A stretch of 64,000 nucleotides of DNA, taken from Escherichia phage vB_EcoM_JNE01. Positions 1 to 55,162 of this stretch are shown here, in pieces; position 1 is the first letter of the stretch; each line of letters starts with the position of its first letter. The notes below the pieces were generated by a model. The model searched no databases and was not told the origin of the DNA. It saw only the letters and a program-made list of their open reading frames with translations. The position numbers and the translations under genes were made by a program. The stretch is from sequence record OR670491; one strand, given 5' to 3'.

Positions 1-20
1 AACATGGTAGTGTTGAGAAT

Positions 21-16705: not shown

Positions 16706-17068
16706 ATGAAATATGTAATAATAACTATAACTTTTTTAATTGGATTGATTTCTAGTTCAGCCAATGCAGTAGTTGGTGAAGAACTAGATTGTATGGGGAA
16801 TGATGGGATATGGCATGTACTTACAAATGACCCACAAAATGGAACTAATATTGTAGTTGACGGTGATGTTTATAGGTTCAGAAACGAAAGTACAATAGGT
16901 AACAAAAAAGTCTCGACATATAAAAATGATGCTGATATAATAGCTAACGTAATCTTGATTGTAGATCCAAAGACAAGGGATGGAGATATCTATATTGTAA
17001 TATATAGAGATTCTTCGAATAAACGCGATGAGGATATAGATAAGCTTAATCTACATTGCGAATTTTAA
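16706..17068 (+). CDS. hypothetical secreted protein
   Basis: Internal ATG (frame +36) of track ORF 16670; signal-peptide-like MKYVIITITFLIGLISSSANA. Confidence 0.45.
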   Translation: MKYVIITITFLIGLISSSANAVVGEELDCMGNDGIWHVLTNDPQNGTNIVVDGDVYRFRNESTIGNKKVSTYKNDADIIANVILIVDPKTRDGDIYIVIYRDSSNKRDEDIDKLNLHCEF

Positions 17069-17079
17069 ACGAGGTTCTT

Positions 17080-17448
17080 ATGTTAAACACGGTTCTTCAG
17101 TACATCTTAAGCATTCCATTTATTCTTAGCAGTCTTGTATCTGTAGCATCAATACTTTTTAGTATCTTTTCAGTAATGTACTGTGTATATACTAAAAAAT
17201 ATACATTCATCAATAAGGTAAACTCCTTATTTGAAACTGATAGTGTACCGTATTGTGTGTGGTCTTTTAGTGCAGCGGGAATTTTTGCAACATTCCTTCT
17301 TTACTGCCTGGATATTATTGACAGAAGTTATGTTCTAATTAGCATTGGGGTAGGATTATATTCATCGTGTTGGTACTTGATTTATGTTGTAGACTCGTGG
17401 TATACTGCATATCAGCAGTACACGATTAATAAACAATATTCCAAGTGA
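17080..17448 (+). CDS. hypothetical membrane protein
   Basis: Internal ATG (frame +24) of track ORF 17056; hydrophobic segments. Confidence 0.4.
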   Translation: MLNTVLQYILSIPFILSSLVSVASILFSIFSVMYCVYTKKYTFINKVNSLFETDSVPYCVWSFSAAGIFATFLLYCLDIIDRSYVLISIGVGLYSSCWYLIYVVDSWYTAYQQYTINKQYSK

Positions 17449-18073: not shown

Positions 18074-18520
18074 ATGCTGGTATATCGTTTTGAATTAGGC
18101 TTTAGTTATGTAGAAGAAAACTTATATCCAGTGAGATCAATTGGACCGTTCGCACGTTACTATTCACAATACAGTACTGACAACGGGTTTGACCGTTTGC
18201 GTTTAGGAACACCACACGAATTGCAACCTGAACCAGAAAAGGATGGCATTCATTGCATCAAGCACGGTTGGGCTTTTGGCTGTGCATCAATTAAAGACCT
18301 TATTCGTTTCTTCGCTAATGACTTAGGTCGTTTGCATCGTTCCGGCTTTCAGGTTTTTGTATATGAAGTTCCTGATAATCATGTTGATGTTGGTGGTCAC
18401 CAGGTTCAGTACTACGTAGGTAGTGCTAATTTAGTACGCATCATGGGTGTACGTGAAATGAAGCAAGAATACCGCCAGATGAAAGAGGTTGAAGATGCAA
18501 AAAACGCTGTACACGTTTAA
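18074..18520 (+). CDS. hypothetical protein
   Basis: 148-aa ORF. Confidence 0.45.
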   Translation: MLVYRFELGFSYVEENLYPVRSIGPFARYYSQYSTDNGFDRLRLGTPHELQPEPEKDGIHCIKHGWAFGCASIKDLIRFFANDLGRLHRSGFQVFVYEVPDNHVDVGGHQVQYYVGSANLVRIMGVREMKQEYRQMKEVEDAKNAVHV

Positions 18521-18854
18521 GAAGTGGTACACATTCACTTTACCTGGTGACAAATACTTTGACCAACAGGATGATGAATATTACAAAAAAGAAACTCTCA
18601 AATTACTGAAGATGGCTAAACAAGCCCTTTCTGTATACAACAGTTCTTTAAACGTAGCCTATGAGCATTACCGAATCACGGCAAAGATTGATGAAGAAGA
18701 TGGTGAACTTTCATTCTTTGAATACGATATTGTATACTTTGGTTACACCGATGATGAAGACCCAATCAACGTTGATAAGATACGACTTGACCTCACCGCT
18801 ATATCTGTTATACTTAAACAACTGGCTGAGATGTGTGGCTTAATTGAAACATAA
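18495..18854 (+). CDS. hypothetical protein
   Basis: ATG 6 nt after AGAGG; internal start of track ORF 18489. Confidence 0.45.
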   Translation: MQKTLYTFKKWYTFTLPGDKYFDQQDDEYYKKETLKLLKMAKQALSVYNSSLNVAYEHYRITAKIDEEDGELSFFEYDIVYFGYTDDEDPINVDKIRLDLTAISVILKQLAEMCGLIET

Positions 18855-19685: not shown

Positions 19686-19764
19686 AAGCTTTATTGATCT
19701 ATATCAATTTTCATTACCAAAATGTAAATATTAATGAGTAAAATATATTTTCATGGAGGTTTAT

Positions 19765-20001
19765 ATGGAAGTTGTTATTATAATATGTGCATTTATTTCT
19801 TTGATAGTAATGTTATCTCCAACTTTTATTGCACACAAATTGAAGAACAATAATGCTGAAGCAATAACATACGTTAACATTTGTTGTGTAATGACATATG
19901 GAATACTGTTGTTCTTTACTGAATTTACTTTTATTCCTATAGTTGTATGTTCATCAATGTTCATATGGTTATTCTTACTGTATGAATCTATTAAAAAATA
20001 A
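19765..20001 (+). CDS. hypothetical membrane protein
   Basis: Internal ATG of track ORF 19753 after GGAGG; hydrophobic. Confidence 0.35.
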   Translation: MEVVIIICAFISLIVMLSPTFIAHKLKNNNAEAITYVNICCVMTYGILLFFTEFTFIPIVVCSSMFIWLFLLYESIKK

Positions 20002-24042: not shown

Positions 24043-24450
24043 ATGAAAAAGACTATTTTAAGCGTAATCGGTGCAGTACTGTTCATGGTAACTTCAGTTG
24101 CTTCTGCTGCAACAGTAGAAGAGATCTTTAATAACAACCTACCTACTCAAGAAGAGATGGGTATTAAGAAGTGTGACCTTTCCCGTTACATCATTTTGGG
24201 ATCACAACTGGTTCCTGATGGTAAGGTTAAAAATCGTGTTAATCTGGTTGAAGATGGTAACACCTTCAGTTTTGAATATGGCGTAGCACCAACCTCCGGT
24301 TCTATGGATAACGTTGATGAAAACACTGGTTCCACCTGGAGTACTAACAAAGGTGATGTGTTCCATCGTATGCGTGAAGGTGGTAAACTGAAATATGTTT
24401 ACGAAAGCCCATTCATCAAACGCGTGTATATTATGACCAACTGCCATTGA
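24043..24450 (+). CDS. hypothetical secreted protein
   Basis: Signal-peptide-like MKKTILSVIGAVLFMVTSVASA; AGAGGAAA upstream. Confidence 0.5.
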   Translation: MKKTILSVIGAVLFMVTSVASAATVEEIFNNNLPTQEEMGIKKCDLSRYIILGSQLVPDGKVKNRVNLVEDGNTFSFEYGVAPTSGSMDNVDENTGSTWSTNKGDVFHRMREGGKLKYVYESPFIKRVYIMTNCH

Positions 24451-24475
24451 CAGATACATTTCAGTACTGTATAAT
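24447..24475 (+). promoter_or_regulatory. sigma70-type promoter
   Basis: TTGACA, 17-nt spacer ending cagtactg, TATAAT. Confidence 0.55.
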
Positions 24476-24501
24476 ACCTACATCAACCAGAGGATATGAC
24501 A

Positions 24502-24786
24502 ATGAATGTATTAGCCAATCTTGTAGGACAGATGCGTTATAACGAAATCATCACTGATGTTTCTGAACTCACTGAATCAAAAAGCTACATCCACTTAGAT
24601 GAACTAATCATCAAGTACGGAGAGATTGGTGTCAATGAGCTTATTGTTTTTATGATTGAAACTCACAAGTTGAAGTACTTTAAGCTGAACTCTGAACCGT
24701 ATGCAGAACCTAATCTTTATTACAGTTATTACTTGAAGTACAAAGATGAATTCAATAGTATTTTTAGTAAACTATTACTTGCATAG
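24502..24786 (+). CDS. hypothetical protein
   Basis: ATG 7 nt after AGAGGA. Confidence 0.4.
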   Translation: MNVLANLVGQMRYNEIITDVSELTESKSYIHLDELIIKYGEIGVNELIVFMIETHKLKYFKLNSEPYAEPNLYYSYYLKYKDEFNSIFSKLLLA

Positions 24787-24795: not shown

Positions 24796-25128
24796 ATGAA
24801 TTTTGAATTGATTAATAAAATATCATTCTGTTTCATGTGTTTAATACAATTGTATTTGACACTTGGATATATACTTAGATTTTTTAAGTACAAAAGTATA
24901 TATAAACGCTTTTATGATGATGCACCTATCTTCGATTTACTGTTCATCGGTAATGCGTTTTCTATAGGAGAAATTCTGGTTGATGGCATTGACCCTGCTC
25001 AACCACAGTTAGTTAGTATCTTACTTGGACTAATTGTATCATGTGTTGGTATATTCCCATTGGTGTGGTCATTCTTTCACTTCGTTGGGTGGCTTGATAA
25101 AATACGTAATAATTTACCGGAGCGATAA
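24796..25128 (+). CDS. small membrane protein, family A
   Basis: About 110 aa, 2-3 hydrophobic segments, basic C-terminal tail ...KIRNNLPER. Confidence 0.45.
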   Translation: MNFELINKISFCFMCLIQLYLTLGYILRFFKYKSIYKRFYDDAPIFDLLFIGNAFSIGEILVDGIDPAQPQLVSILLGLIVSCVGIFPLVWSFFHFVGWLDKIRNNLPER

Positions 25129-25463
25129 TGCAAACAGTAAACACATTAAGTTTTATCATTTGTACTGTGTCTGTATTTTATATGGTACTGTGTTATGTTT
25201 TGTGGTTTTTCAAATTTGAAAGCATTTTAGAACGTGTTTATAGGCTGGACTTAGAAGATGAGATTGGTATAACAGTACTCACTGTTCTAGGTTTTGTCTG
25301 TGGTGCGTCTATCCTGTTGGATATGTACATGAAACTACCCATTGATGCCCCACATCCTCCAGTAATCACCAGTTCAATTGTAATTGGTATTGTAGGTTTC
25401 CAGGGATTGATTAGTCTGTTTTCCTCAATAGCTACATATAGAGATAAGCTACCAAAGAGGTAA
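25128..25463 (+). CDS. small membrane protein, family A
   Basis: Paralog; C-terminus ...YRDKLPKR; start overlaps upstream stop. Confidence 0.45.
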   Translation: MQTVNTLSFIICTVSVFYMVLCYVLWFFKFESILERVYRLDLEDEIGITVLTVLGFVCGASILLDMYMKLPIDAPHPPVITSSIVIGIVGFQGLISLFSSIATYRDKLPKR

Positions 25464-25465
25464 AA

Positions 25466-25819
25466 ATGTCGGATAAGTACTACTTTACGGGTAAGAAATG
25501 TGAACCATACGTTTTGGATTACAAGGAGCAGGAACAACCTAAACCGAAAAAGAAAGCGAAGAAGGAAGTAGTGAAGAAACAAAAACCACTGGTTAAAGGA
25601 TTGAAACTTAAACCTTTCCAAAAACTGGACTTTGACACTTACAGAAAGATTTATTTGGATTTGACGTGTAACATTAGCTTTGATGTTAATGCGATGAACA
25701 GGAAGTATAACCTGAAGGGTAGTTTCAATTTTTATTATGACTTAAAGAATGATGATCTTGAATCTTACCATGAGTGGTATAACGTTATGAATAACCACGT
25801 CGATGACAATAACCCATAG
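25466..25819 (+). CDS. hypothetical lysine-rich protein
   Basis: 117-aa ORF. Confidence 0.4.
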   Translation: MSDKYYFTGKKCEPYVLDYKEQEQPKPKKKAKKEVVKKQKPLVKGLKLKPFQKLDFDTYRKIYLDLTCNISFDVNAMNRKYNLKGSFNFYYDLKNDDLESYHEWYNVMNNHVDDNNP

Positions 25820-25827
25820 GTGAATAT

Positions 25828-26178
25828 ATGATTGAAATTATCGGAACGATCAGTTTTGTGTCATGTGTATTGTTCTGCACTTACATGATAATTGGACACA
25901 TTTTGTATTTCTTCAATTACATTACTGTGTTTAAAAAATTCTACTTCGAAAAGAGTGGATTTTTGTTTTACATTTGTGATTTTTTCACATGGGTGTCAAT
26001 GGGTGCAGTTATAATGGATATTATGTTTAGTGAAGATGTTTCTAAGGTAGGGTTCGGAATGACGCTTCTACCATTTGCACTATTCGTTACCCTTGTAGCT
26101 TTGTTCTTGATAGTGTTATCAAGTAATTTTATATCAGAGAAATTAAACAAGGCTAGAGAAAACTTCCCAATGCGATAA
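25828..26178 (+). CDS. small membrane protein, family A
   Basis: Paralog; C-terminus ...KARENFPMR. Confidence 0.45.
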   Translation: MIEIIGTISFVSCVLFCTYMIIGHILYFFNYITVFKKFYFEKSGFLFYICDFFTWVSMGAVIMDIMFSEDVSKVGFGMTLLPFALFVTLVALFLIVLSSNFISEKLNKARENFPMR

Positions 26179-27692: not shown

Positions 27693-27944
27693 ATGAAAAT
27701 TTTATTAGTTCTAATACTACTAATTGTTTTACCATTTACGTTAGTATCCCCTGAACTTGCATGGAATGTGTTTGTGTACTTACTATGTACTATTGTAGTA
27801 AATGGTATCTTGTTCTTAGTTCTATTCATAAATGGAATAGGACACGGTGGAGGATGGACCAGAACTGCTGATATTGTACATAAAACCACTATGTCTTTAT
27901 TTGTAGTGTGGAATTTATTCTGGACTTGGTTTGTGTTCTTCTAA
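27693..27944 (+). CDS. hypothetical membrane protein
   Basis: 83-aa hydrophobic ORF. Confidence 0.4.
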   Translation: MKILLVLILLIVLPFTLVSPELAWNVFVYLLCTIVVNGILFLVLFINGIGHGGGWTRTADIVHKTTMSLFVVWNLFWTWFVFF

Positions 27945-30760: not shown

Positions 30761-30955
30761 ATGTTATTACTATATTCAAAGCGTTTCTGGATTTCTTTCA
30801 TTGTACTTTCGCTAATCGGCTTCGGTGTGAGTATAATCTTTTCGTGGGATGAATTGGGTACATGGTATTATGAAGTTCCGTGGTACATGAAGATAGCTCC
30901 TTGTTACGCGGCATTGTTCGTGTCCTTCCTTATTGTTGTCTTCAGTGAGGATTAG
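30761..30955 (+). CDS. hypothetical small membrane protein
   Basis: 64-aa hydrophobic ORF. Confidence 0.4.
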   Translation: MLLLYSKRFWISFIVLSLIGFGVSIIFSWDELGTWYYEVPWYMKIAPCYAALFVSFLIVVFSED

Positions 30956-31095: not shown

Positions 31096-31329
31096 ATGAA
31101 ACTATCTTTTATACGTTTAGCAGAATTCTTCGGTACTGATATCATTACTTTACAACAAATTGCAGACAATACTTCATTAAGTACACAAGAAGTACTTGAC
31201 TTGGATGTAATTAAGTGCGATAATACTTCCATCGATTACAAAGAAGGTCTTGTCGAAAAAGATAAGATTCAGGCTAAGATTAATGGTGCTGGACGGGTTC
31301 AGTACTGGAAAGGAGTTTTAAGTAAATGA
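31096..31329 (+). CDS. hypothetical protein
   Basis: 77-aa ORF, AGAGG upstream. Confidence 0.4.
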   Translation: MKLSFIRLAEFFGTDIITLQQIADNTSLSTQEVLDLDVIKCDNTSIDYKEGLVEKDKIQAKINGAGRVQYWKGVLSK

Positions 31330-32750
31330 AAATTTATATTGATAAATTTGGAACGACTTATGAATATTATGATTATACACATTATAATTCATATATACAA
31401 AAAAATCATAACCAAATGTCACCTTATTTGCATTATGAAGATTTAATGGAACTATTCTCTAAAAATGTAAATTCTATTAAATTTATTGGTTTTAAAGATG
31501 CAACATGGAAAAGTTCACATACGCATGTGTATTTTGAATATGATAATATGGTATATGAACATTCAATATCAAATATCAAAACAAAATTCGCTGATCATAG
31601 ACATAAACCAGGTAGAATATGTAGAACCTTGGAACAAATTATAAATGAGTCCATTTATATATTTAAAAAATATGATAAATTTAATTTTCATAGCAGTGCA
31701 TCATTTAATGGAGCACGAACTATAATCAATTATACAATTGAAGGACGTGAAAGAATATTTTCTATATCATTCAATTCATTAATAAAAGATTTTAAAGGGG
31801 GAAGCCCATGTTATTCATATGAAGAAGTAGAAAATATATCTATAAAAAAATTAAATGAACATAATTTGAGATTTATCTCAATTAGTAAATTTAATGGTGT
31901 GTTTAGTTGTATTGAATATGAACAACCAACACAGAAAGGAAAAAAATATGTTGATTTTAATATATTAATCTATAATGAATGGAAAGGTAATCTACCGAAT
32001 ATAACTAATGAAGAGGTGAATAATCGAATTTCAGAAAAAATGAAAAAACTAAATATCAATGAATATGAAATTGTAGAATATAACAGTACTAGGAGCATGG
32101 TTGAATATACAGTTGATGATATTTCATATACAACTAGTTACGATAAGATTATGCATCCAACTTGGAAAGGTAATCCAAGATATACAAAAGAAAGAATAAT
32201 AAAATTGTCGAAAAAATATTGCAAGGGTAAAAAATTTCAATTTAATAAAATAATTGGTAATGTTAAAGGAATTAATACTATCATTGAATTAGAACTTGAA
32301 AATGGTATGTTTATATATCCAAAATTTATACAATTAAAAGGAGGTTCTGACTTTAATACATCCACTGATGGTAAGATTTTAACAGAAATAATTTATCCTT
32401 TGTTCGACAATTATATCACACAAAAACGTTTTGAAAATTGTAGAAATCCTGAAACTGGATACTTGTTGCCATATGATTTGTATGTTCCAGAATTTAATTT
32501 ATTATTAGAAAAAGATGGAGTGCAACATTACAATCCAACAGCATATTTTAATAAAACATATGAATCATATTTGAAATTGAGAGAGAGAGATGAATTTAAA
32601 AACAAATATGCCATATCAAATGGTTATAATTTCATGCGAATAGCAGATTATGAAGATCATGAAAAAATATTGAAATCTTTCCTTAAACTCATTGAAGAGA
32701 ATCCAGGAAAGCAAATCGTGCAGATCTATGGTGAAGTACAAATTATCTAA
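31326..32750 (+). CDS. AT-rich ORF with C-terminal Vsr/DUF559-like PD-(D/E)xK nuclease motif; candidate homing-type endonuclease
   Basis: 474 aa, rich in Asn/Lys/Ile/Tyr, visibly lower G+C than its neighbours; C-terminal ...PETGYLLPYDLYVPEFNLLLEKDGVQHY fits the D...(I/L)E-x-DG-xx-H pattern of Vsr-like nucleases. Confidence 0.45.
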   Translation: MKIYIDKFGTTYEYYDYTHYNSYIQKNHNQMSPYLHYEDLMELFSKNVNSIKFIGFKDATWKSSHTHVYFEYDNMVYEHSISNIKTKFADHRHKPGRICRTLEQIINESIYIFKKYDKFNFHSSASFNGARTIINYTIEGRERIFSISFNSLIKDFKGGSPCYSYEEVENISIKKLNEHNLRFISISKFNGVFSCIEYEQPTQKGKKYVDFNILIYNEWKGNLPNITNEEVNNRISEKMKKLNINEYEIVEYNSTRSMVEYTVDDISYTTSYDKIMHPTWKGNPRYTKERIIKLSKKYCKGKKFQFNKIIGNVKGINTIIELELENGMFIYPKFIQLKGGSDFNTSTDGKILTEIIYPLFDNYITQKRFENCRNPETGYLLPYDLYVPEFNLLLEKDGVQHYNPTAYFNKTYESYLKLRERDEFKNKYAISNGYNFMRIADYEDHEKILKSFLKLIEENPGKQIVQIYGEVQII

Positions 32751-32818: not shown

Positions 32819-33592
32819 ATGACCCGTACAGAGAAAGCAATCCAAATCGAAAAGAACTTCAACAGCATGATGGCAGCTTTGGAATGTTTACTTGATACCC
32901 AAGCTAATTCAATCAATTCCCTGATTGTATCTGGTAAAGGTGGTGTTGGTAAAACTTACAACGTTGACCAGCGTTTACAGAAAGCTGATGATAACTTTGA
33001 AATCGACTACAAAAAGATCAGCGGTAAAGTAACCACTATGGGTTTGTACGAAGCACTGTATCGTTCACGTCATGCCGCTTCAGTACTGTTACTTGATGAC
33101 GTTGATATCTTCAGTGATGAAACTAACATTGACTTGCTCAAAGCAGTGTTGGACACGTCGGAGAAGCGGGTTGTATCTTATGCAACTTCTGGTAAGTACC
33201 TGGAGCAGCAGGGTATTCCTAAGCAGTTTGAATTCCGTGGGAAGGTAATCTTCCTGACGAACAAAAACCTGTCACAGATTGCTAAAGGTAAAAGCAGTTT
33301 AGCACCACACATTGATGCACTGATTACTCGTAGTATCTTTGTTGACCTACAACTGTTCACCAACGAAGAAGTCATGATTCACATTGAGAACATCATGAAC
33401 AAGACTAACATTCTTGAGAACAATGGTGTTAATAAAAATGGTTGTAAAGCAATCCTGAACTGGATGCTGAACAACGAAGAAAACCTGCGTTCACCTTCAC
33501 TGCGTATGCCGTGCCTGATTGCTGGTTTGTACAACAAATTCCCGTATGATTGGGAATCAATGGCAGAAAACATGTTCCTGGAAAAGAACTAA
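32819..33592 (+). CDS. P-loop NTPase
   Basis: Walker A SGKGGVGKT and Walker B-like VLLLDDVD. Confidence 0.55.
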   Translation: MTRTEKAIQIEKNFNSMMAALECLLDTQANSINSLIVSGKGGVGKTYNVDQRLQKADDNFEIDYKKISGKVTTMGLYEALYRSRHAASVLLLDDVDIFSDETNIDLLKAVLDTSEKRVVSYATSGKYLEQQGIPKQFEFRGKVIFLTNKNLSQIAKGKSSLAPHIDALITRSIFVDLQLFTNEEVMIHIENIMNKTNILENNGVNKNGCKAILNWMLNNEENLRSPSLRMPCLIAGLYNKFPYDWESMAENMFLEKN

Positions 33593-33595
33593 TAC

Positions 33596-33624
33596 TTGAC
33601 AGTACTACCAATGTACAGTACAAT
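33596..33624 (+). promoter_or_regulatory. sigma70-type promoter
   Basis: TTGACA, 17-nt spacer, TACAAT. Confidence 0.5.
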
Positions 33625-33651
33625 ACCTGTATTGAAAAGCGAGGAAACGAT

Positions 33652-33981
33652 ATGCAAGAATTTATAACACAAGATTGGGTACGAAGTTTGACATTCTTCT
33701 ATATGTTGGGGTTCGTATATTATCATGTACTGGTTGGTATACTATGGTACTTTAAGAAGCGAGCGTGTTTAACTCTGTATCCAGAATGGATGATTTTATT
33801 TTCTGTCGTACAAGGCGTTGGTGTGTTATTTGGGGCAATAACACATTGGGTGTATGTGACTGACCCTAGATTAATTTATATTGCACCTTACTTTGTATTT
33901 GGATTTGGTATCATATTTTTGTGCATGAGTGCAATATATGGTTTGGTAGTTTATCGTAGAAAAATTGTTGGCGATTTATAA
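33652..33981 (+). CDS. small membrane protein, family B
   Basis: Internal ATG (frame +102) of track ORF 33550; hydrophobic. Confidence 0.45.
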   Translation: MQEFITQDWVRSLTFFYMLGFVYYHVLVGILWYFKKRACLTLYPEWMILFSVVQGVGVLFGAITHWVYVTDPRLIYIAPYFVFGFGIIFLCMSAIYGLVVYRRKIVGDL

Positions 33982-33993
33982 GGGGATACAAAG

Positions 33994-34344
33994 ATGGGTT
34001 CTGATTACATTGAGTTTATTTTGAATAGCGGCATTGTACAAACTATTTCTATGTGTATCTTTTATCTTTATATTTTTGTTTGTGCATTTTTCTTTATTGG
34101 ATGGTACTTTAAACGTCCTTACTACGAAGTATATGCATACAGTGAAGAACTAAGTATTGCTAATAATATCTTAGCGTACTGTAGTGTAGGAGCATTAATT
34201 ATTGCAGTTGCAAGTGATAAAGGCTTAAATGTTGCATTTGCATTCTCTTATGGTGTCTGTGCATTGCCAGCATTCATTTTCTTTGGTATTATATTAGTAC
34301 TGAAATACCTTAACAAACTACGTAACCACATTCCAGAGGCATAA
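33994..34344 (+). CDS. small membrane protein, family B
   Basis: Hydrophobic; C-terminus ...LKYLNKLRNHIPEA. Confidence 0.45.
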   Translation: MGSDYIEFILNSGIVQTISMCIFYLYIFVCAFFFIGWYFKRPYYEVYAYSEELSIANNILAYCSVGALIIAVASDKGLNVAFAFSYGVCALPAFIFFGIILVLKYLNKLRNHIPEA

Positions 34345-34345
34345 T

Positions 34346-34684
34346 ATGGAGTACTTTCTGAGTTTATTACCAATGCACATTCTAATCGCTACAGGTTATT
34401 ATGTATTCTTTGCAGTATTCTTTTTCCTGATGTGGTTCTTCAAACGACCCATTTCAGTCGTGATTGACCGTAACTACTGGCCTCCTATGTTACACGTTTG
34501 GTACTGGTTTTCGTGCTTTATGTCTATTATTCACTACGCTTTGATTAGTACTGGTCAACGTTCAAATGGGGAAGGTATTTGTACTGTGTTTTTTATATTA
34601 GGAACAGCGGTATATATATTTCTTCTAGTAACACCACTGATTCAGAAGTTACGTTCTAAGATTCCTGACGTGAGAGGTCACTAA
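34346..34684 (+). CDS. small membrane protein, family B
   Basis: Hydrophobic; C-terminus ...QKLRSKIPDVRGH. Confidence 0.45.
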   Translation: MEYFLSLLPMHILIATGYYVFFAVFFFLMWFFKRPISVVIDRNYWPPMLHVWYWFSCFMSIIHYALISTGQRSNGEGICTVFFILGTAVYIFLLVTPLIQKLRSKIPDVRGH

Positions 34685-34686
34685 CA

Positions 34687-34995
34687 ATGTTTGAATTTGT
34701 AATGTTTACAGTAATTTCATTTTACTTTTGTATTTGCTGGGTTGGATTTCTCTTTGCACTGAAATCTTTTATCTTCTTTGAGAAGCAAGCAAAAGAGTTT
34801 TGGTTCCCAATCGCAGTAGTGACAGTAACATCACTGATTTGGGTATGGAAATTGTCATATGGTACATATGATGACATTCAGGTAGCACAATTTCTTCTTG
34901 GCCCTTGTGTAGTTGTATTTGTAGTAAGTTCAATTCCACCATTGTGTCGTGCAGTGAAGTCGTTTCATATGAAACAAAAAGCTAAACGCAGATAA
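34687..34995 (+). CDS. small membrane protein, family B
   Basis: Hydrophobic, basic C-terminus. Confidence 0.45.
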   Translation: MFEFVMFTVISFYFCICWVGFLFALKSFIFFEKQAKEFWFPIAVVTVTSLIWVWKLSYGTYDDIQVAQFLLGPCVVVFVVSSIPPLCRAVKSFHMKQKAKRR

Positions 34996-35006
34996 AGGAT
35001 AATAAC

Positions 35007-35324
35007 ATGCAAATTGAATTGATTCTATTCATCATCTGTGCTGTGTACATGTTATCGTGTTGGGTTGGATACCTGTTCGCAATCCCTGTATTTGACTTTT
35101 TTGAGAAACAATGCAAGAATGGTTTTATATGGGCGTGGGGTGCAACATTCAACAGTGTAATATGGACAGTACTACTTATATTCCATCCTCCTGAAGATAT
35201 GTACGGTGTGAGGATAGTACTGGTTATGACGCTTATATTAGTTGGATTATCAGCCTGTGAAGCACTATACAAAGTATTCACTTCCGTTCGTTTGAAGTAC
35301 TTGAATAAGAGGAAAGATGTATGA
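35007..35324 (+). CDS. small membrane protein, family B
   Basis: Hydrophobic; C-terminus ...LKYLNKRKDV. Confidence 0.45.
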   Translation: MQIELILFIICAVYMLSCWVGYLFAIPVFDFFEKQCKNGFIWAWGATFNSVIWTVLLIFHPPEDMYGVRIVLVMTLILVGLSACEALYKVFTSVRLKYLNKRKDV

Positions 35325-35698
35325 TTACATTTACATTAAATGCATTGACAGTAATTCTATGCTATAGTACACTAGTCTACATTGGTAAATTCTTTTGTGT
35401 AAGATTCTTTGAAGCACAATACGATGCAGCGGCTGAAGACGATATTGATAATGTTGCTATCAGTGCTATGTGTTATTGTTTTGGTTTATTCTTCACTGTA
35501 TGTGCATGGTTAACGTACTATTATGATTTTGGATACCTAGAGGGTGACAGATTCTTACTAGTGTTGTTATTGGTATTCGGTTCATTTTGTGTCGTGATAC
35601 ACTTTTTTATTCTTGTGTGTACTAGTGTAGTATATAAGTTAGTTCCGTTCTTTAAAGATTTGCACAGTAAAATCCGTGCTAAGAAGAGAGGTGAGTGA
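35321..35698 (+). CDS. small membrane protein, family B
   Basis: Hydrophobic; overlaps upstream stop; C-terminus ...SKIRAKKRGE. Confidence 0.45.
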   Translation: MITFTLNALTVILCYSTLVYIGKFFCVRFFEAQYDAAAEDDIDNVAISAMCYCFGLFFTVCAWLTYYYDFGYLEGDRFLLVLLLVFGSFCVVIHFFILVCTSVVYKLVPFFKDLHSKIRAKKRGE

Positions 35699-36051
35699 TG
35701 TTATCATTTGCGGGTCAGATTATCGTCATGGGTATTACATTATTATTCACGGTGAATAGTATTATTTTACTCGGTAAGTACTTTAATATTCGTCCAATGA
35801 ATAAGTTGTACGATAAATTAAAAGAAGATAATCCATTCTATGTATTTTTATCTGTAGCAATTGGCATAGGTTTCGTTTTAGAAGTTATTGGTTTAATTGC
35901 ATCTGCACCAGTTGTGATTGTTTTTGGAATCTTTTCTGCTACATGTGGGTTATTATTATTTTCTTTAGGTTTAATACTCGACCTATCGATTAACATTGGT
36001 ATTAAACTTAAGAAGTTTCATGAAAAGCAACTTCAGAGGGACGTAAAATGA
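35695..36051 (+). CDS. small membrane protein, family B
   Basis: Hydrophobic; overlapping start. Confidence 0.45.
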   Translation: MMLSFAGQIIVMGITLLFTVNSIILLGKYFNIRPMNKLYDKLKEDNPFYVFLSVAIGIGFVLEVIGLIASAPVVIVFGIFSATCGLLLFSLGLILDLSINIGIKLKKFHEKQLQRDVK

Positions 36052-36419
36052 CATACCGTGAGTACTTCCTAATTGTTCATATCTTATTTTTTACCGTATT
36101 TTCTGTTGTAGGGTTGATGTATTATTTTTGTATTCAACCAGTGTACAATTACTTCCAGAAGACTACTGACACAAAGGTTGTTGGTACAATTGCTGCAATC
36201 CTATTATATATGTTGAGTATCCTTCTTATAATTGGTGAAGTATTTTTTGATGGTATGCCAAATTCAGACGGTTTGCTTATTCATGAGTTTATAACTGGTT
36301 TATATTGTTTAGTTGGGTTTATTGCATTTGTGATTTTTACAGTGTACAGGATCTATAAATTTTTCATGTATCTTGGTGGACTACACGATTCTATTCGTCA
36401 GAAACGTATGGGGGAATAA
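36048..36419 (+). CDS. small membrane protein, family B
   Basis: Hydrophobic; C-terminus ...HDSIRQKRMGE. Confidence 0.45.
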   Translation: MTYREYFLIVHILFFTVFSVVGLMYYFCIQPVYNYFQKTTDTKVVGTIAAILLYMLSILLIIGEVFFDGMPNSDGLLIHEFITGLYCLVGFIAFVIFTVYRIYKFFMYLGGLHDSIRQKRMGE

Positions 36420-36465
36420 AAAAATACCCAGTACTGAAATATTGTACTGGGTATTTTAATATATT

Positions 36466-36819
36466 ATGAGATTCATTAAAGCGAGCTTGCAATCACAAAA
36501 GAAATGTCAAATTATAATTGAACACGATGGTTTGAAGATATCAGCATTTGATTTTGGAAGTACTAAACATTCTATTTGCTTTAATGATCCTGACAACGCA
36601 GTGTATTGTCTTATGATTAAAGTAAACTACTTACATAAACTTATAACAGAACCTGAATATTTTGTTCGTTTCAAAAACTTTAGTACAGAGAAACTACATG
36701 AGATATATAGAATTTCAATGATTGCATATACATTTTTGGGAATACCTGATGATGAACTTGATGTGACATTCCCTGGTGAAGCTAAAATACCTAAAGAATC
36801 ATTTTGGAAGGATTTATGA
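36466..36819 (+). CDS. hypothetical protein
   Basis: 117-aa ORF. Confidence 0.4.
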   Translation: MRFIKASLQSQKKCQIIIEHDGLKISAFDFGSTKHSICFNDPDNAVYCLMIKVNYLHKLITEPEYFVRFKNFSTEKLHEIYRISMIAYTFLGIPDDELDVTFPGEAKIPKESFWKDL

Positions 36820-37668: not shown

Positions 37669-37696
37669 AAAGCCAGTACAAAGTACTGGCTTTATT
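37669..37696. terminator. bidirectional rho-independent terminator
   Basis: GCCAGTAC-AAA-GTACTGGC flanked by an A-run and a T-run, between convergent genes. Confidence 0.65.
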
Positions 37697-38902
37697 TTAT
37701 ATACCACGACTGGGTATTTGATATAATTGGAATTTAGTGTAGTAATCAGAAACTGTTGTCCCGGCTGCTTGTGGGATATAGCCACTCAAATACACATCCC
37801 CTTGATTATCCATATACACTGTTGTACATTCACTTGAACAGAATAACTCGGTGTTAGATACTTTAGGAGCATCAACTGGTGTTACAAATGTAGTACTTGA
37901 TGTTGTATTACCGCGACCGAGCTTACCATACGTGTTTATACCACACATATAAAGTGAATCGGCAGTTTTAACCGTAAGCCCACCATATGTTAATGAATTT
38001 GATTTCATTTCCATATCATCTGATATTGGTAGAGTGGAGATAGTGGATAATACTGTCCAAGAATTAGCGGATGAACCATTACCCAAGTTACCATCGGACT
38101 GAATCCCACTTGCACGAACTGTATATGTATTATTCGTGTTGTGTTTATATACAACCCATGATGCACTCCCACCGAGTTCATAATGTATAACAGTATTGTT
38201 GGCGAATGCACCCATTTGTGTCCATACTCTAATGTTAGTTGCATTATTACTTATACCAAGCGAACCCCATGTGTTTTGACCAGTGACCCAAAGTGTTTTA
38301 TCAATTTTCTGCACAATCACTGCACTTGAACCTGTTTTAACACTATCAACATTCGTATTAATTGACGTAAAAGTTGATAATCTAGTGGTTGTGTTATTAC
38401 CAAAATATCCCTGTGTATTCGTCCCCATTCCATATAGCGTACCATTTTCAAGTAAAACAAAAATACCCTCACCTACAAGTTGAATGTCCTTAATTTGGGA
38501 CAATTGTGTAGCATTGAATACTGATGTAAAATATGAAGTACAATCAGTATAAGTACTGGCAGTACTTAAACCTGCACCAATAGCTTTACCAACCCCACTG
38601 TAATAAAATTTATTATCTTCAGTTTGGATTAAATTAAAAGTACCTTGGGCTGTTCTGAAACGTTTTACATTTTGGTATATTAAAGTCCATTCTTTTACTT
38701 TCGCATTATGTACACCATTCCCGAATCCATAGTTTTGTGAAGTAGTTCCACCTATACCCATTAAGTCTCCATTTTTATATAATAGTAAGAGTGCTGTTGC
38801 TGGAATTACTGACGCACTATAACCATTGTACATAAAGATTTCTTTCACTTCAGGAACTTTCATTTTATTAGCGTATTTAACCATTCTTGCAAAAGGTAAC
38901 AT
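37697..38902 (-). CDS. RCC1-like beta-propeller repeat protein, paralog 1
   Basis: 401 aa; N-terminus MLPFARMVKYANK; Gly/Asn/Thr/Ser-rich repeats typical of RCC1-like blades. Confidence 0.6.
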   Translation of the reverse strand: MLPFARMVKYANKMKVPEVKEIFMYNGYSASVIPATALLLLYKNGDLMGIGGTTSQNYGFGNGVHNAKVKEWTLIYQNVKRFRTAQGTFNLIQTEDNKFYYSGVGKAIGAGLSTASTYTDCTSYFTSVFNATQLSQIKDIQLVGEGIFVLLENGTLYGMGTNTQGYFGNNTTTRLSTFTSINTNVDSVKTGSSAVIVQKIDKTLWVTGQNTWGSLGISNNATNIRVWTQMGAFANNTVIHYELGGSASWVVYKHNTNNTYTVRASGIQSDGNLGNGSSANSWTVLSTISTLPISDDMEMKSNSLTYGGLTVKTADSLYMCGINTYGKLGRGNTTSSTTFVTPVDAPKVSNTELFCSSECTTVYMDNQGDVYLSGYIPQAAGTTVSDYYTKFQLYQIPSRGI

Positions 38903-49312: not shown

Positions 49313-49518
49313 CTCAAGAACAAATTATGCAGTACTACCTATGTGCTATATCAAAAGAACATCTGAATAGCATAGGGCATCAACAAATTATACTTGCAAA
49401 TGCGAAACGTTCGGCACTTCTGCTTAACTCCATCAGAAATAACCTCATAAGGAATTTTCTGGAAGGTAACGAATCTATGCAGTACTATTTCATCTTAACA
49501 CTACTAATCGAGTACTAA
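49309..49518 (+). CDS. small-ORF array member 2
   Basis: 69 aa; N-terminal ...QYY, C-terminal ...YYFILTLLIEY. Confidence 0.45.
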   Translation: MTQEQIMQYYLCAISKEHLNSIGHQQIILANAKRSALLLNSIRNNLIRNFLEGNESMQYYFILTLLIEY

Positions 49519-49722
49519 ATGAATAAAGAACAATTATTTCAGTACTATAAAAGTACTCTGTCCAAAGGTCTACAGGAAAGTATAGCAGTTGAGTCTGCAA
49601 TACTACAGAACCTTAATGCAGTAGAATTCACAAACAGAATCACCAGGCACGCACAAAATGCTTTACAAGGACATGAAACCTTGAGATACTATCACATCAT
49701 CGTGCTTTGTATGGAGGTATAA
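49519..49722 (+). CDS. small-ORF array member 3
   Basis: 67 aa; ...FQYYKSTLSK ... YYHIIVLCMEV. Confidence 0.45.
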   Translation: MNKEQLFQYYKSTLSKGLQESIAVESAILQNLNAVEFTNRITRHAQNALQGHETLRYYHIIVLCMEV

Positions 49723-49730
49723 CAGAACAA

Positions 49731-49922
49731 ATGAATCCAGAACATCTAGAGTACTACAAGACATTCATGAACCACAAGGATCAGTACAGTTACAATACTG
49801 CTATGGGGCATTTTCGATACCATACCAAAAAAATGCAAAAGCACACACTAACACTATGGACTGTACAAGCACAACGAGACGAACTAAGATTGTGTGCTAT
49901 AATTAAAATCCTGAACATCTAA
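49731..49922 (+). CDS. small-ORF array member 4
   Basis: Internal ATG of track ORF 49707; MNPEHLEYYKT... Confidence 0.4.
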   Translation: MNPEHLEYYKTFMNHKDQYSYNTAMGHFRYHTKKMQKHTLTLWTVQAQRDELRLCAIIKILNI

Positions 49923-49930
49923 GGAATACT

Positions 49931-50122
49931 ATGTACGAGCACAAAGAACAGTACTTAAACACTCTACCTAAAGATATACAAAGAGCATTCCCTTGTGCTC
50001 CGTGGGATTTAAACAGTAAATGGGGTTTTATTGAGTTCTATAACGATGTATGTATTGTACTGGAAAGTAAGTCCCTCTCAATGCAGTACTGTTCAATCTT
50101 GAACCTAATTTTTAAGTACTAA
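49931..50122 (+). CDS. small-ORF array member 5
   Basis: MYEHKEQYLNTLP ... LNLIFKY. Confidence 0.45.
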   Translation: MYEHKEQYLNTLPKDIQRAFPCAPWDLNSKWGFIEFYNDVCIVLESKSLSMQYCSILNLIFKY

Positions 50123-50126
50123 AACT

Positions 50127-50306
50127 ATGCAAACATTCTATACAGATAGACTAAGCCTTAGAGATACTTTTATGTACGAAACCTTTGTTAAGTACTATAA
50201 CTTAGGTACTCCAATTACAAAGAATATTAATCTACAGCACTGCACACACTCAGCAGTACATGACCACGATCCGTACAGATACATCTTAGCCCTTTTAAGT
50301 ATATAA
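50127..50306 (+). CDS. small-ORF array member 6
   Basis: 59 aa (not in track): MQTFYTDRLS ... YRYILALLSI. Confidence 0.35.
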   Translation: MQTFYTDRLSLRDTFMYETFVKYYNLGTPITKNINLQHCTHSAVHDHDPYRYILALLSI

Positions 50307-50315
50307 GGAACACTA

Positions 50316-50990
50316 ATGAAACTCAATAATTACAGTAAACAATACCTAAAGCATTTTAAGTACCTCAAAAGCATTAAGGCTGAATCTATCACCAGCAGCT
50401 ACGTTTACAGCCCTAATGTACTAAAACAATTAAAGTACAAGAAAGAAAAAGTATCAAAGAACCTCAAAAAGTTTCTTAAGCACAAAGACGCAAAGATTCA
50501 GTACTTGAACATTAAAAACGATCATCCAGTACTAAGCCTCAATACAAGTCTAAAGAATCTGGATAACTCTTCATTTATGCTTGAGTTCAATATAAATGAA
50601 AATACTCCAGCGGTTTTTACAATTGCGTATAATAAAGCACAAATCTTTTTAGGTGCAAAAACCGCACTTAAACTCAGTAAAGCACAATTCTGTTTAGGTG
50701 ACCAGTACTACGTAGGTAGTGTACATATTGAACTCGAAAAAGATATGTACTTCGGTAGTACCCACGATAATCCAGAACATAAAGATACTATTGACTTCTT
50801 CAGGAATCTCCCTAAAGAGTATTCAGAAGATGAAATGTTCCAGTGGAGTACTATTATTAAAGACCCACATCTTTGCTACGAAGTGTATAAGAAAGTACAA
50901 GGGATTAAACAAATGATTAAAGAAAATAAAAAAATGTACCAACTCTTGCAGTTCTTAACCGGAGAAAATCTAATTGTTCAAAGACCATAA
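50316..50990 (+). CDS. hypothetical protein inserted in the small-ORF array
   Basis: 224-aa ORF with repeated KxxYLK-like segments. Confidence 0.45.
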   Translation: MKLNNYSKQYLKHFKYLKSIKAESITSSYVYSPNVLKQLKYKKEKVSKNLKKFLKHKDAKIQYLNIKNDHPVLSLNTSLKNLDNSSFMLEFNINENTPAVFTIAYNKAQIFLGAKTALKLSKAQFCLGDQYYVGSVHIELEKDMYFGSTHDNPEHKDTIDFFRNLPKEYSEDEMFQWSTIIKDPHLCYEVYKKVQGIKQMIKENKKMYQLLQFLTGENLIVQRP

Positions 50991-51168
50991 AGAGTACTAC
51001 AGAAATCAACTCCCAAAGGAATGGCAAATAACATTAGAAACTAACCTAGCACAGATATATACCCAGAAGTTTCTTGCTATGACATGGGAGCACTGCATTG
51101 AGTCAGTACTGAATTCTTCAAATGAATCACAATATCTCAATACTCTTTTACTTGTATATAAATTCTAA
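50974..51168 (+). CDS. small-ORF array member 7
   Basis: (M)FKDHKEYYRNQLP ... LLLVYKF; apparent TTG start overlapping the upstream gene. Confidence 0.35.
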   Translation: MFKDHKEYYRNQLPKEWQITLETNLAQIYTQKFLAMTWEHCIESVLNSSNESQYLNTLLLVYKF

Positions 51169-51181
51169 AAAGGAATAACAA

Positions 51182-51388
51182 ATGCAATTCCATGAACATA
51201 TGGAGTACTACAGAAAACAACTACCAGAACCTTTATCGATGATAATCGGTTCCAGAAGTTTAATAAGTAATCCCAATTTTCATATGCGTAGTCACTATAA
51301 ATGTACTGCTTCAATTTGTAATGGAACTGCTCACAATGAACCGCACCAGCATCTATACCAAATCCTTAAACTAATATATCAGTACTAA
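51182..51388 (+). CDS. small-ORF array member 8
   Basis: MQFHEHMEYYRKQLP ... LKLIYQY. Confidence 0.45.
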   Translation: MQFHEHMEYYRKQLPEPLSMIIGSRSLISNPNFHMRSHYKCTASICNGTAHNEPHQHLYQILKLIYQY

Positions 51389-51391
51389 ATT

Positions 51392-51583
51392 ATGCACGAA
51401 TATAAAGAGTACTACAAAGATAAAATCCCAAAGTTTCTACAATACCAAATACCAGATGCTGCACTAGGAATAAATGATGTGCACACCTGTACAAGATTCT
51501 ATCAATGCACTGAAAGTTTTCTGGTAGATGATTATGACCAATGCAAGGTGTACTATGTTATTTCACTAATATATAGGTACTAA
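51392..51583 (+). CDS. small-ORF array member 9
   Basis: MHEYKEYYKDKIP ... ISLIYRY. Confidence 0.45.
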   Translation: MHEYKEYYKDKIPKFLQYQIPDAALGINDVHTCTRFYQCTESFLVDDYDQCKVYYVISLIYRY

Positions 51584-51586
51584 ATC

Positions 51587-51766
51587 ATGCACAACGATTT
51601 CTATATACAAAAACTTATCGACGCTGGCCTGGAAAGCTTCCCGATAAATCCTGTACAAACAAAAGGATTGCACTGGTACTTCATCCCCTGTACTAAAGCA
51701 TGTATAAACCCCAGCAATTACAAGGATCTATACCACAATATATTAATACTCGCATTGAGGTACTAA
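51587..51766 (+). CDS. small-ORF array member 10
   Basis: 59 aa (not in track): MHNDFYIQKL ... ILILALRY. Confidence 0.35.
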   Translation: MHNDFYIQKLIDAGLESFPINPVQTKGLHWYFIPCTKACINPSNYKDLYHNILILALRY

Positions 51767-51769
51767 ATT

Positions 51770-51952
51770 ATGCAAGAACACTTGGAGTACTACAGAAGCC
51801 ATCTCCCAAAGAAGGCACAAAGAAACTTCGACCAACAATATATAAACCAAAAGAATCAGTTCTATAATGCATTCTATTCGTCTATGAAAACTATTGCTAT
51901 ACAAGGCAAAGACCCGTACTATAGCATCCTGAACATCATCTTCAAGTACTAA
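51770..51952 (+). CDS. small-ORF array member 11
   Basis: MQEHLEYYRSHLP ... LNIIFKY. Confidence 0.45.
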   Translation: MQEHLEYYRSHLPKKAQRNFDQQYINQKNQFYNAFYSSMKTIAIQGKDPYYSILNIIFKY

Positions 51953-51955
51953 AGC

Positions 51956-52141
51956 ATGTACAGAGACTTCTATATAAGTAAACTTAATCCTGTACTACAA
52001 ACTCGTATTCCTCCAGCGAAATTTATCCTCAAAACAAAAGCACAAAGGTATGAGTTCAAAAAGTGTACAAAAGAAATACTCAGTACTAAAAGTAATAAGA
52101 ACATATACTATCAAGTACTCGTCCTTATATTCAAGTACTAA
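51956..52141 (+). CDS. small-ORF array member 12
   Basis: MYRDFYISKLNP ... VLVLIFKY. Confidence 0.45.
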   Translation: MYRDFYISKLNPVLQTRIPPAKFILKTKAQRYEFKKCTKEILSTKSNKNIYYQVLVLIFKY

Positions 52142-52161
52142 AGTACTAAAGGAATAAACAT

Positions 52162-52356
52162 ATGCAACACCAGCACAAATTGTACTACACGCAATTTCTT
52201 AATCAGCAACTACAACAATTTATACCTAATGAACCATTACCATATGATCATCCCCTGGGTGCACGCGTTTTCAAAAGAACTATTAATGAACTATTGAGTA
52301 CTACCGACGACGATTCCCTGTACTACTGCTTAATTAAACTTATATATAGGCACTAA
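52162..52356 (+). CDS. small-ORF array member 13
   Basis: MQHQHKLYYTQFL ... LIKLIYRH. Confidence 0.45.
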   Translation: MQHQHKLYYTQFLNQQLQQFIPNEPLPYDHPLGARVFKRTINELLSTTDDDSLYYCLIKLIYRH

Positions 52357-52357
52357 T

Positions 52358-52552
52358 ATGCAACTCCTGCACAGAGAATACTACACACAATTCCTTAAAG
52401 AGAACTACAGAGATTCAGTCCCCGTAACTCCTTTTGACCCAAATAACCCAAGTTCAATCTTCCTCTTTAACGACGCAACACGTACTGCACTCTGTACTAC
52501 CAATAAACATTGGCACTACGCATTTGTACTTATACTTATATACAGACACTAA
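52358..52552 (+). CDS. small-ORF array member 14
   Basis: MQLLHREYYTQFL ... LILIYRH. Confidence 0.45.
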   Translation: MQLLHREYYTQFLKENYRDSVPVTPFDPNNPSSIFLFNDATRTALCTTNKHWHYAFVLILIYRH

Positions 52553-52561
52553 GGCACTAAC

Positions 52562-52747
52562 ATGAATGAGCACAGAGAGTACTACATAAAGAGACTTCAC
52601 CCCGACCTACGAGATACTATACCATTCGTTCCACATAATATACATGAACCCGTAGTGCAGTACTACTTTAATATAACAGTACAAGCCGCATTAAGTGAAT
52701 ATAGACTTGAGTACTTCACTGTACTAAAACTTATATATAAGTACTAA
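52562..52747 (+). CDS. small-ORF array member 15
   Basis: MNEHREYYIKRLHP ... LKLIYKY. Confidence 0.45.
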   Translation: MNEHREYYIKRLHPDLRDTIPFVPHNIHEPVVQYYFNITVQAALSEYRLEYFTVLKLIYKY

Positions 52748-52812
52748 CCCCTTGACATATACTCCAAGAATGATATACTACTTTCTATATAGAAACAATA
52801 CAGAGATAACAT

Positions 52813-53022
52813 ATGCACGAACATAAAGATTTCTATGTAAGCCAACTCCCCGTAATAGACCAATTCTGGTTAGCTGATGCAGCACCGTGTAATACAGATA
52901 CTAAGTACGGACAATTGTGCTTTGTTGAATCTATAAAGAAAGTACTACAACAAGATAAAACTAAGTACCGTAAAGAAAAAGACTTGTACTTTAATATAGT
53001 AGAACTTACCTTTATGTTCTAG
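52813..53022 (+). CDS. small-ORF array member 16
   Basis: MHEHKDFYVSQLP ... VELTFMF. Confidence 0.45.
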   Translation: MHEHKDFYVSQLPVIDQFWLADAAPCNTDTKYGQLCFVESIKKVLQQDKTKYRKEKDLYFNIVELTFMF

Positions 53023-53343
53023 TATAGAGAATAGTACAGGATACTAAGGTCTAGATGTGTTCCTAGGGAAGCATTATAACAGGCTTTAACATCTCGTAAA
53101 GATGTTAAAATTCAGCCTGCTCGACGTCTGAATTGTTAAAATTCAGCCTGGACAAATGCGATCACTAGGATTCTATCTAGGCTGAATCCCGTAATCACAA
53201 GTACGCATATGTAATCATATATAAACATTTCCGTGAGAAGTTTTGAGTACTGTATAGTATTAAGAATCACCGTAGGAGCACAGAATGATTAAGAATGCAC
53301 GGGAATGATTCAGAATGATTCAGTACTGATATGTCACTAAGTA

Positions 53344-53369
53344 GGCAGAGGAAGTCTGCCGTACTTTTT
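53344..53369 (+). terminator. rho-independent terminator (approximate coordinates)
   Basis: GGCAGA-ggaag-TCTGCC followed by GTACTTTTT. Confidence 0.45.
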
Positions 53370-55046: not shown

Positions 55047-55079
55047 GAAAACTATTTTAAAAGTATTTGTAGAAAGTAC

Positions 55080-55139: not shown

Positions 55140-55162
55140 ACACTTTAAGAGAGATTAATACG

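Follow-up and report, generated by a model that had tools for sequence, protein, structure and literature searches.

What does a large phage gain from eight small membrane-protein genes laid end to end, with three more of similar make in a separate cluster? The question is raised by Escherichia phage vB_EcoM_JNE01 (sequence record OR670491), of which we analysed one stretch of 64,000 nucleotides (nt; hereafter, the window). Eleven open reading frames (ORFs) on its + strand are concerned: eight are contiguous (B0-B7, 33652-36419) and three lie elsewhere (A1-A3, 24796-26178). All eleven had been located at these positions in a first-pass annotation, which took them for paralogous membrane proteins and proposed superinfection exclusion, lysis timing or membrane-embedded anti-defence as their role. 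Profile comparisons indicate that the eleven genes are one divergent superfamily. The best explanation overall, to which we assign a probability of about 0.4, is an early inner-membrane family that would act as exclusion or protection factors.

Kinship and coding of the eleven genes

Pairwise comparison by BLASTP linked only A1-A2-A3, B3-B4 and, weakly, B5-B6-B7. Profile searches (jackhmmer/hmmsearch) were run on the ORFs of the window and of related loci, with reversed-sequence decoys included; syntenic loci were taken from PBECO4, Turkey3, vB_Ec-M-J, CMSTMSU, Munch, fENko-Kae01 and Erwinia phage Hallingskeid. They robustly resolved three subgroups: I (A1-A3 and B0-B2), II (B3 and B4) and III (B5-B7). 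A single reversed decoy matched over all iterated searches (E 0.0055), and none did at E ≤ 10 with the subgroup hidden Markov models (HMMs). The CMSTMSU array (6497-8637 of the locus extract) is broken into short fragments of 71-104 amino acids (aa), consistent with frameshift sequencing errors, and its record is flagged UNVERIFIED_ORG; it was therefore left out of the profiles.

The subgroups were compared with hhalign, using alignments enlarged by database relatives to 90 (I), 11 (II) and 28 (III) sequences. Subgroups I and III matched with a probability of 95.1% (E 3e-8, 111 columns), II and III with 94.0% (E 1e-7, 103 columns), and I and II with 41.7%. Reversed profiles reached at most 19%, and ten unrelated membrane ORFs of the window (six with three transmembrane (TM) helices, two with two and two with one) all stayed below 2%. 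The alignments also brought two motifs into register, one directly after TM1 (ILWFFK in I, LGKFFCV in III) and one in the tail (lR.KIPe in I, iH..I..K in III). Because this full-length similarity exceeds that of both the reversed and the unrelated-membrane-protein controls, the eleven genes are best described as one superfamily, with subgroup II joined via III.

Could the genes instead be unrelated small hydrophobic ORFs, alike only through membrane-protein composition? The absence of significant BLAST hits between subgroups, the low I-II probability and the division of the members among seven PHROGs families would suit this idea. It is nevertheless largely refuted and very improbable, given full-length matches at 94-95% set against the reversed profiles and the ten membrane ORFs, the absence of reversed decoys from the subgroup HMM searches, and an aromatic-FF-basic motif after TM1 and a tail motif that align across subgroups. 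The first-pass annotation would have given up a family of membrane paralogs had either TM segments or similarity among the members been lacking; hydropathy detected the former (see below), and profile comparison the latter, weak as it is between pairs.

The search for additional members closed at eleven. Subgroup HMMs scanned over the complete genome of Escherichia phage Turkey5 (PQ471516.1, 351 kb) and the window gave exactly these genes and no twelfth. Other small multi-TM ORFs of the window were rejected as hidden members (hhalign <2%). Eight such + strand ORFs with two or three TM helices are unrelated to the family by the same measure (7543-7968, 7973-8416, 16010-16252, 16301-16633, 17056-17448, 19753-20001, 27693-27944 and 30761-30955). 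One of them, the 82-aa ORF at 19753-20001, aligns weakly (pairwise E 0.007) to a Hallingskeid protein annotated 'superinfection immunity', which is itself weak against Pfam Imm_superinfect (E 0.012).

Subgroup I makes up the A cluster and the start of the B array. A1 (24796-25128, 110 aa, tail KIRNNLPER, HMM E 4e-31) has a Shine-Dalgarno (SD)-like site before its ATG and three hydrophobic segments, with 1, 5, 0 and 3 K/R in N-terminus, loop 1, loop 2 and C-tail, respectively. A2 (25128-25463, 111 aa, HMM E 4e-34), likewise with an SD-like site, overlaps the A1 stop by 1 nt, and A3 (25828-26178, 116 aa, HMM E 2e-27) follows after an unrelated soluble ORF of 117 aa (25466-25819). In the B array, B0 (33652-33981, 109 aa, HMM E 3e-23) and B1 (33994-34344, 116 aa, tail KLRNHIPEA) precede B2 (34346-34684, 112 aa), the best conserved member, with 52-54% identity to PBECO4-type orthologues and 33% to RaK2. 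Subgroup II comprises B3 (34687-34995, 102 aa), whose protein is 100% identical to a database entry from vB_EcoM_JNE01, and its paralog B4 (35007-35324, 105 aa, 30% identity). The array ends with subgroup III: B5 (35321-35698, 125 aa, GKFFCV motif, tail HSKIRAKKRGE, HMM E 3e-40), B6 (35698-36051, 117 aa from ATG 35698 or 118 aa from GTG 35695) and B7 (36048-36419, 123 aa, HMM E 3e-33).

The products thus measure 102-125 aa, within the 100-145 aa first proposed; a length near the upper end of that range (143 aa) would be reached only if B0 were extended to an upstream TTG. Of the seven B junctions, first described as 'often overlapping', three overlap by 1-4 nt and the remaining ones are gaps of 1-12 nt. 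Every start carries a GAGG/AGGA-type SD sequence 6-10 nt ahead. With junctions this tight, the SDs fall within the upstream gene, encoded in its last 3-5 codons (34330-34345, 34670-34686, 35305-35320, 35680-35697 and 36030-36047; C-terminal ends such as PEA, VRGH, KRKDV, KKRGE and QRDVK), and these purine-rich elements therefore place the extreme C-terminal residues of several members under a dual coding constraint. The Turkey5 annotation uses identical starts, except that B6 begins at ATG 35698 and not at GTG 35695. Between the two genomes the family differs at 45.5 synonymous and 33.5 non-synonymous sites, and its pooled ratio of non-synonymous to synonymous change (pN/pS), 0.20, cannot be told apart from that of 20 neighbouring genes (0.18). 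An SD at each start, this ratio and the Turkey5 calls together identify functional protein-coding genes and not chance ORFs, with all members under purifying selection.

The only DNA-level repeat inside the arrays is a 24-nt remnant common to B3 and B4. Recent duplication was rejected on this account, and the duplications must be old: the family arose by ancient tandem duplication into three subgroups with a conserved array order. The 'unusual investment' in one family claimed at first is a fair description of a modest outlay, as the 11 genes total about 3.7 kb in a genome of 351 kb (roughly 1%).

Predicted topology and putative early promoters

Kyte-Doolittle windows show 2-3 strong hydrophobic segments in each protein, and the C-tails of the eleven members hold 3-7 K/R, both in agreement with the hydrophobic segments and basic tails first reported. 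To the 126 family sequences we applied a charge count based on the three best hydrophobic windows. The average K+R per protein was 0-0.4 in the N-terminus, 2.6-3.7 in loop 1, 0.3-0.65 in loop 2 and 3.4-6.9 in the C-tail, with the N-terminus and loop 2 net acidic. Under the positive-inside rule, this distribution points to three spans with the N-terminus out and the C-terminus in, and the family proteins are predicted to be three-pass, N-out/C-in inner-membrane proteins. AlphaFold2 models, of medium confidence, likewise suggest three long helices in B1 (pLDDT, the model's own confidence score, 66.6; helices 13-38, 51-76 and 80-110) and in B5 (pLDDT 69.6; helices 2-24, 28-38, 43-69 and 76-123).

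Conservation is unevenly spread along the chain. Across 75 subgroup I sequences, information content is highest at LWFFK, right after TM1, and at R.KIP, near the C-terminus, and conservation is poor in TM2, loop 2 and TM3. The conserved surface is therefore likely to be cytoplasm-proximal and the variable part to be the membrane/periplasmic hairpin.

To profile promoters in the window, we searched for TTGACA-16..18-TATAAT with at least 11 of 12 positions matching and took the expectation from a first-order Markov model. Near-consensus sigma-70 sites numbered 33 on the + strand and 5 on the minus strand, with ~2 expected per strand; the + strand sites (1-37500 and 49000-64000) include 15 perfect 12/12 matches. 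Near both family clusters they lie in gaps directly 5' of ORFs. This density marks the window as a large, presumed early-gene region. In the CBB genome paper, promoter-dense regions of short ORFs were assigned to early genes (PMC5259590), and the distantly related phage PA5oct depends on host RNA polymerase (PMC7318152).

The promoter of the B array (TTGACA-17-TACAAT, 33596-33624, + strand) occupies the 59-nt gap between the stop of a P-loop ATPase gene (33592) and the start of B0 (33652). Its position and near-identical sequence are kept in Turkey5, Turkey3, PBECO4, WPEC3 and phAPEC6 (six genomes with the window); in Hallingskeid and Munch, the array directly abuts the ATPase gene. A conserved sigma-70 promoter within a promoter-dense region makes early expression probable, and there are good grounds to expect that host RNA polymerase would transcribe the B array early from this site. 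The PBECO4-type array promoter also contains an inverted repeat (AGTACTAC ... GTAGTACT) in the spacer between the -35 and -10 hexamers, imperfect in the version of the window; this repeat could be a candidate operator for the shut-off of early transcription. Downstream, a strong bidirectional terminator-like hairpin with an 11 bp stem (37669-37693) closes the transcription unit with the B array, before a convergent block of RCC1-repeat genes.

For the A cluster, the probable promoter is a perfect-consensus site at 24447-24475 (+ strand), upstream of a 96-aa ORF (24496-24786) that precedes A1; no further 11-12/12 site follows until 26847. Just 5' of the cluster, after an 11/12 promoter match, lies a 135-aa ORF (24043-24450) with a signal-peptide-like N-terminus (MKKTILSVIGAVLFMVTSVASA), whose product is probably a secreted or periplasmic early protein.

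Distribution, divergence and neighbouring genes

The window belongs to an Asteriusvirus-like jumbo coliphage: its region 33500-36500 is 97.8% identical to Turkey5, and a distant DNA search found resemblance in 34 further jumbo phages of ~337-386 kb, either of the PBECO4/121Q (Asteriusvirus) type or related to it. By tblastn, B5 matched 35 phage records (Escherichia and Salmonella phages) and B2 matched 44, adding the Klebsiella phages RaK2, K64-1 and Muenster; all Asteriusvirus-type records of Escherichia or Salmonella phages that matched have homologues of both. On these searches, the family does not extend beyond the Rak2-like jumbo phages of Enterobacterales.

Named relatives were absent at every level of comparison. 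Scans of the 11 proteins against Pfam, NCBIfam and PADLOC gave no meaningful match (PADLOC-DB, none at E ≤ 0.1), and Foldseek searches with the B1 and B5 models gave nothing significant (BFVD E ≥ 1.9; no match in PDB), the top non-significant matches being membrane proteins of CBB and GAP32. A word-indexed search of 5.8 billion proteins returned 15, 12 and 6 clusters for subgroups I, II and III, all without names or domains. Exhaustive HMMER over 1.84 billion representatives returned 60 clusters, all of 89-128 aa with end-to-end matches; since all are single-domain, no fusion or annotated relative gives a functional lead. PHROGs places the members in seven families of unknown function (19285, 19454, 26405, 33258, 27396, 27618 and 19046; best E 2e-12 to 9e-35), which are united here as one superfamily. 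The proteins are thus already known to databases as hypothetical, and the 'conserved putative membrane proteins' of the Rak2-like phages CBB, GAP32 and Muenster are the same or orthologues. No description of the unity of the family, its topology, motifs, array order or early promoter was found in the papers searched, among them those on Sharanji, fEgEco12, UE-S1, phAPEC6 and CBB and a 2026 jumbo-phage review.

Syntenic orthologues in the same order were found in PBECO4, Turkey3, vB_Ec-M-J, phAPEC6 and WPEC3. A typical Asteriusvirus genome has seven B genes in the order I, I, I, II, III, III, III and three A genes, contiguous in PBECO4 and Turkey3. In the lineage of the window, subgroup II counts one gene more: B3 is orthologous to the single gene in other Asteriusvirus genomes, and B4 is the addition. 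Downstream of the same ATPase, ten members can be recognised in Hallingskeid and in a metagenomic contig, I-type first and III-type next, with an I-like last gene, and Munch and Kae01 have four small membrane genes at the locus, of which just one is clearly recognisable as a member. The comparison of copy number among related phages that had been suggested at the outset thus gives 1-4 in Munch and Kae01, 7-8 B genes in Asteriusvirus and 10 in Hallingskeid. The fixed order in the genomes read and the presence of B2 and B5 in all matching records suggest that the set is a stable trait of the lineage and not a sporadic arsenal.

The sequences themselves are less stable. Between Turkey3 and PBECO4, family orthologues share 62-91% identity and their neighbours 94-97%; between the window and PBECO4, the family shares 23-54% in mosaic blocks and many nearby genes 77-96%. 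These comparisons indicate that the family diverges faster than its neighbours. Two further observations concern the arrays. The PBECO4 record encodes an A2 orthologue at 178951-179319 (minus strand), where the RefSeq annotation leaves a gap. A soluble 42-aa ORF (MKP..W.IED.R.MR...ESYL.LL.WYVKVLNSKE) lies within the membrane-protein arrays of Munch, Kae01, Hallingskeid and the metagenomic contig (locus-extract positions 18400-18528, 7435-7563 and 6075-6203); its identity of 67-86% is far above that of its membrane neighbours, and it is absent from the window and from PBECO4-type arrays.

Genes around the arrays are nearly all on the + strand. The 257-aa P-loop ATPase upstream of B0 (32819-33592), annotated variously as 'FleQ', 'clamp loader' or 'thioredoxin', is a homologue of T4 NrdC.10 (~40% identity, 1309 phage records). 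The allele of the window is 99.2% identical to that of WPEC3, 87% to that of Hallingskeid and only 59% to that of PBECO4, which indicates mosaic exchange across host genera. A functional ATPase-array module was considered and rejected: T4-type phages have no such array beside their NrdC.10 homologue, and WPEC3 combines the window-type ATPase with a PBECO4-type array. As the ATPase is widespread without the array and the two reassort, their adjacency is positional and not evidence of a module. Directly upstream of the ATPase is a 474-aa HNH/homing-endonuclease-like ORF (31326-32750; PHROG 559/9084), to which nothing corresponds at this site in PBECO4 or Turkey3 and which is therefore probably a mobile insertion beside a recombination-prone block.

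On the other side, nine tandem RCC1-repeat genes of 358-447 aa (37697-48965, minus strand) are convergent to the B array, an arrangement shared by all related genomes examined. From gene to gene, identity to PBECO4 switches between 85-96% and ~31-34%, so this array is itself mosaic. It lies immediately downstream of the B array and is, like it, a lineage-specific tandem expansion of paralogs; unlike the family, its products are large soluble beta-propellers. RCC1-repeat proteins have been reported in virions (PMC7247149). The genomes examined gave no evidence of a functional link between the two arrays.

Possible roles at the host membrane

In the mechanism that we favour, the conserved sigma-70 promoter would let host RNA polymerase transcribe the B array as soon as infection begins, and the array would be translated as a tightly coupled operon. 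Once inserted in the inner membrane of the host, each protein would expose its N-terminus and the loop between TM2 and TM3 to the periplasm, with loop 1 and the C-tail facing the cytoplasm. Two conserved cytoplasm-proximal elements, an aromatic-Phe-Phe-basic motif where TM1 ends and, in the tail, R-x-K-I-P (I) or H-x-x-I-x-x-K (III), would provide a common anchoring or partner-binding function. The TM2-loop-TM3 hairpin would be free to vary, and different hairpins would recognise different membrane targets, such as host membrane proteins or the DNA-entry machinery that competing phages use. In the least certain step, the proteins would act early in the inner membrane as exclusion or protection factors, analogous and not homologous to T4 Imm and Sp.

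T4 Imm and Sp are small inner-membrane proteins with early host-type promoters; they are conserved in their lineage and act on the envelope of the infected cell. The present family shares the small size and the lineage conservation, and its timing and membrane location, as judged from promoters and topology prediction, would also agree. It differs in having no sequence relationship to either protein, three TM helices where Imm has two and Sp one, and eleven paralogs in two arrays where Imm and Sp are single genes. A place outside the virion would suit such a role: the phAPEC6 orthologues gp012-gp017 are unnamed in the main text of the mass-spectrometry paper, including its structural-proteome table. 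Mass spectrometry easily overlooks small hydrophobic proteins, and this absence is therefore weak evidence of non-virion status.

Several points weigh against exclusion or protection. None of the 11 proteins matches Imm_superinfect (PF14373) at E ≤ 1, the family profiles reach at most 2.1% against the Hallingskeid Imm-like protein (hhalign), and in these searches no homology links the family to exclusion. The early timing is read from promoter sequence, and the TM topology is a prediction from hydropathy, charge bias and models of medium confidence (pLDDT 67-70). The periplasm-exposed parts are ~8-14 residues each and offer little surface for recognising incoming phages, and the charged tail is partly constrained by the embedded SD of the next gene. 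In addition, the recurrence of B2 and B5 in all matching records and the order fixed in the genomes read suit a conserved housekeeping function or a multi-subunit complex no worse than they suit an arms-race arsenal. A role in exclusion or protection at the host membrane would accordingly be our best guess, held with modest confidence.

The main rival is a hetero-oligomeric inner-membrane complex of 7-8 different three-pass subunits in Asteriusvirus, or ~10 in Hallingskeid-type phages, built early by the phage, for example as a channel or platform for its own cycle. We regard it as unlikely, though it has much in its favour: the Asteriusvirus genomes read agree in gene set and order, the subgroup order I, II, III is kept, B2 and B5 recur throughout the matching records, and each member is under purifying selection. 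Junctions with overlaps or gaps of at most 12 nt and SDs inside upstream genes also suggest stoichiometric, coupled translation, and lineages have exchanged the whole array in a single piece, with the adjacent ATPase reassorting on its own. Such a complex would have to accommodate three members in a separate cluster 8.5 kb off with a different promoter, the variation in copy number by genus described above and an extra subgroup II copy tolerated in one lineage. Somewhat less likely still is the specific proposal that the 7-10 coupled and ordered paralogs make a single phage-built channel or platform, placed in the host membrane when infection sets in, with LWFFK and R-x-K-I-P as the interface between subunits or with a partner.

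Exclusion and membrane-embedded anti-defence are both compatible with the promoter-inferred early expression, the predicted inner-membrane location and the faster divergence than neighbouring genes. As anti-defence factors, the proteins would each neutralise a different membrane-acting abortive-infection effector or host membrane sensor, and cassette 'alleles' only 30-54% identical in genomes otherwise ~90% identical would suit that role. Anti-defence genes are usually patchy among close relatives, and an order kept in the genomes read, B2 and B5 in all matching records and a stable genus-wide distribution fit less well; short-term evolution is purifying with no non-synonymous excess, and no similarity to PADLOC components hints at mimicry. 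We consider this role improbable, to about the same degree as the single channel. Lysis timing, the remaining role first suggested, is disfavoured, and that the proteins are holins or antiholins is very unlikely indeed. They resemble class I holins (lambda S105 type) in size (~105-125 aa), three predicted TM helices, N-out/C-in orientation and charged C-tail, and the non-significant Foldseek matches include holins (E ≥ 1.9). Yet none of the 11 proteins matches a holin Pfam at E ≤ 1, hhalign gives <1% against a lambda S sequence, and the conserved juxtamembrane and tail motifs are unlike those of holins. The B array has a sigma-70 early-type promoter directly upstream and, at 326-329 kb in Turkey5, lies >140 kb from the annotated endolysins (115194-116120 and 180876-181364). 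Eleven copies are, to our knowledge, unprecedented for a holin.

Genes for small early membrane proteins, of which jumbo phages have dozens, rank among the least understood in phages. Here, seven 'unrelated' PHROGs of unknown function become one superfamily, in which the topology is defined, two cytoplasmic motifs are conserved and the order is fixed, and thus one tractable target. If its members are Imm-like exclusion factors, the result would be useful but unsurprising; if they assemble into a complex, viruses would be seen to build a membrane assembly of a new kind. Rak2-like phages (PBECO4, 121Q and RaK2 relatives) are considered for therapy, and the family could reveal how they condition the host membrane, exclude competitors or resist membrane-based defences.

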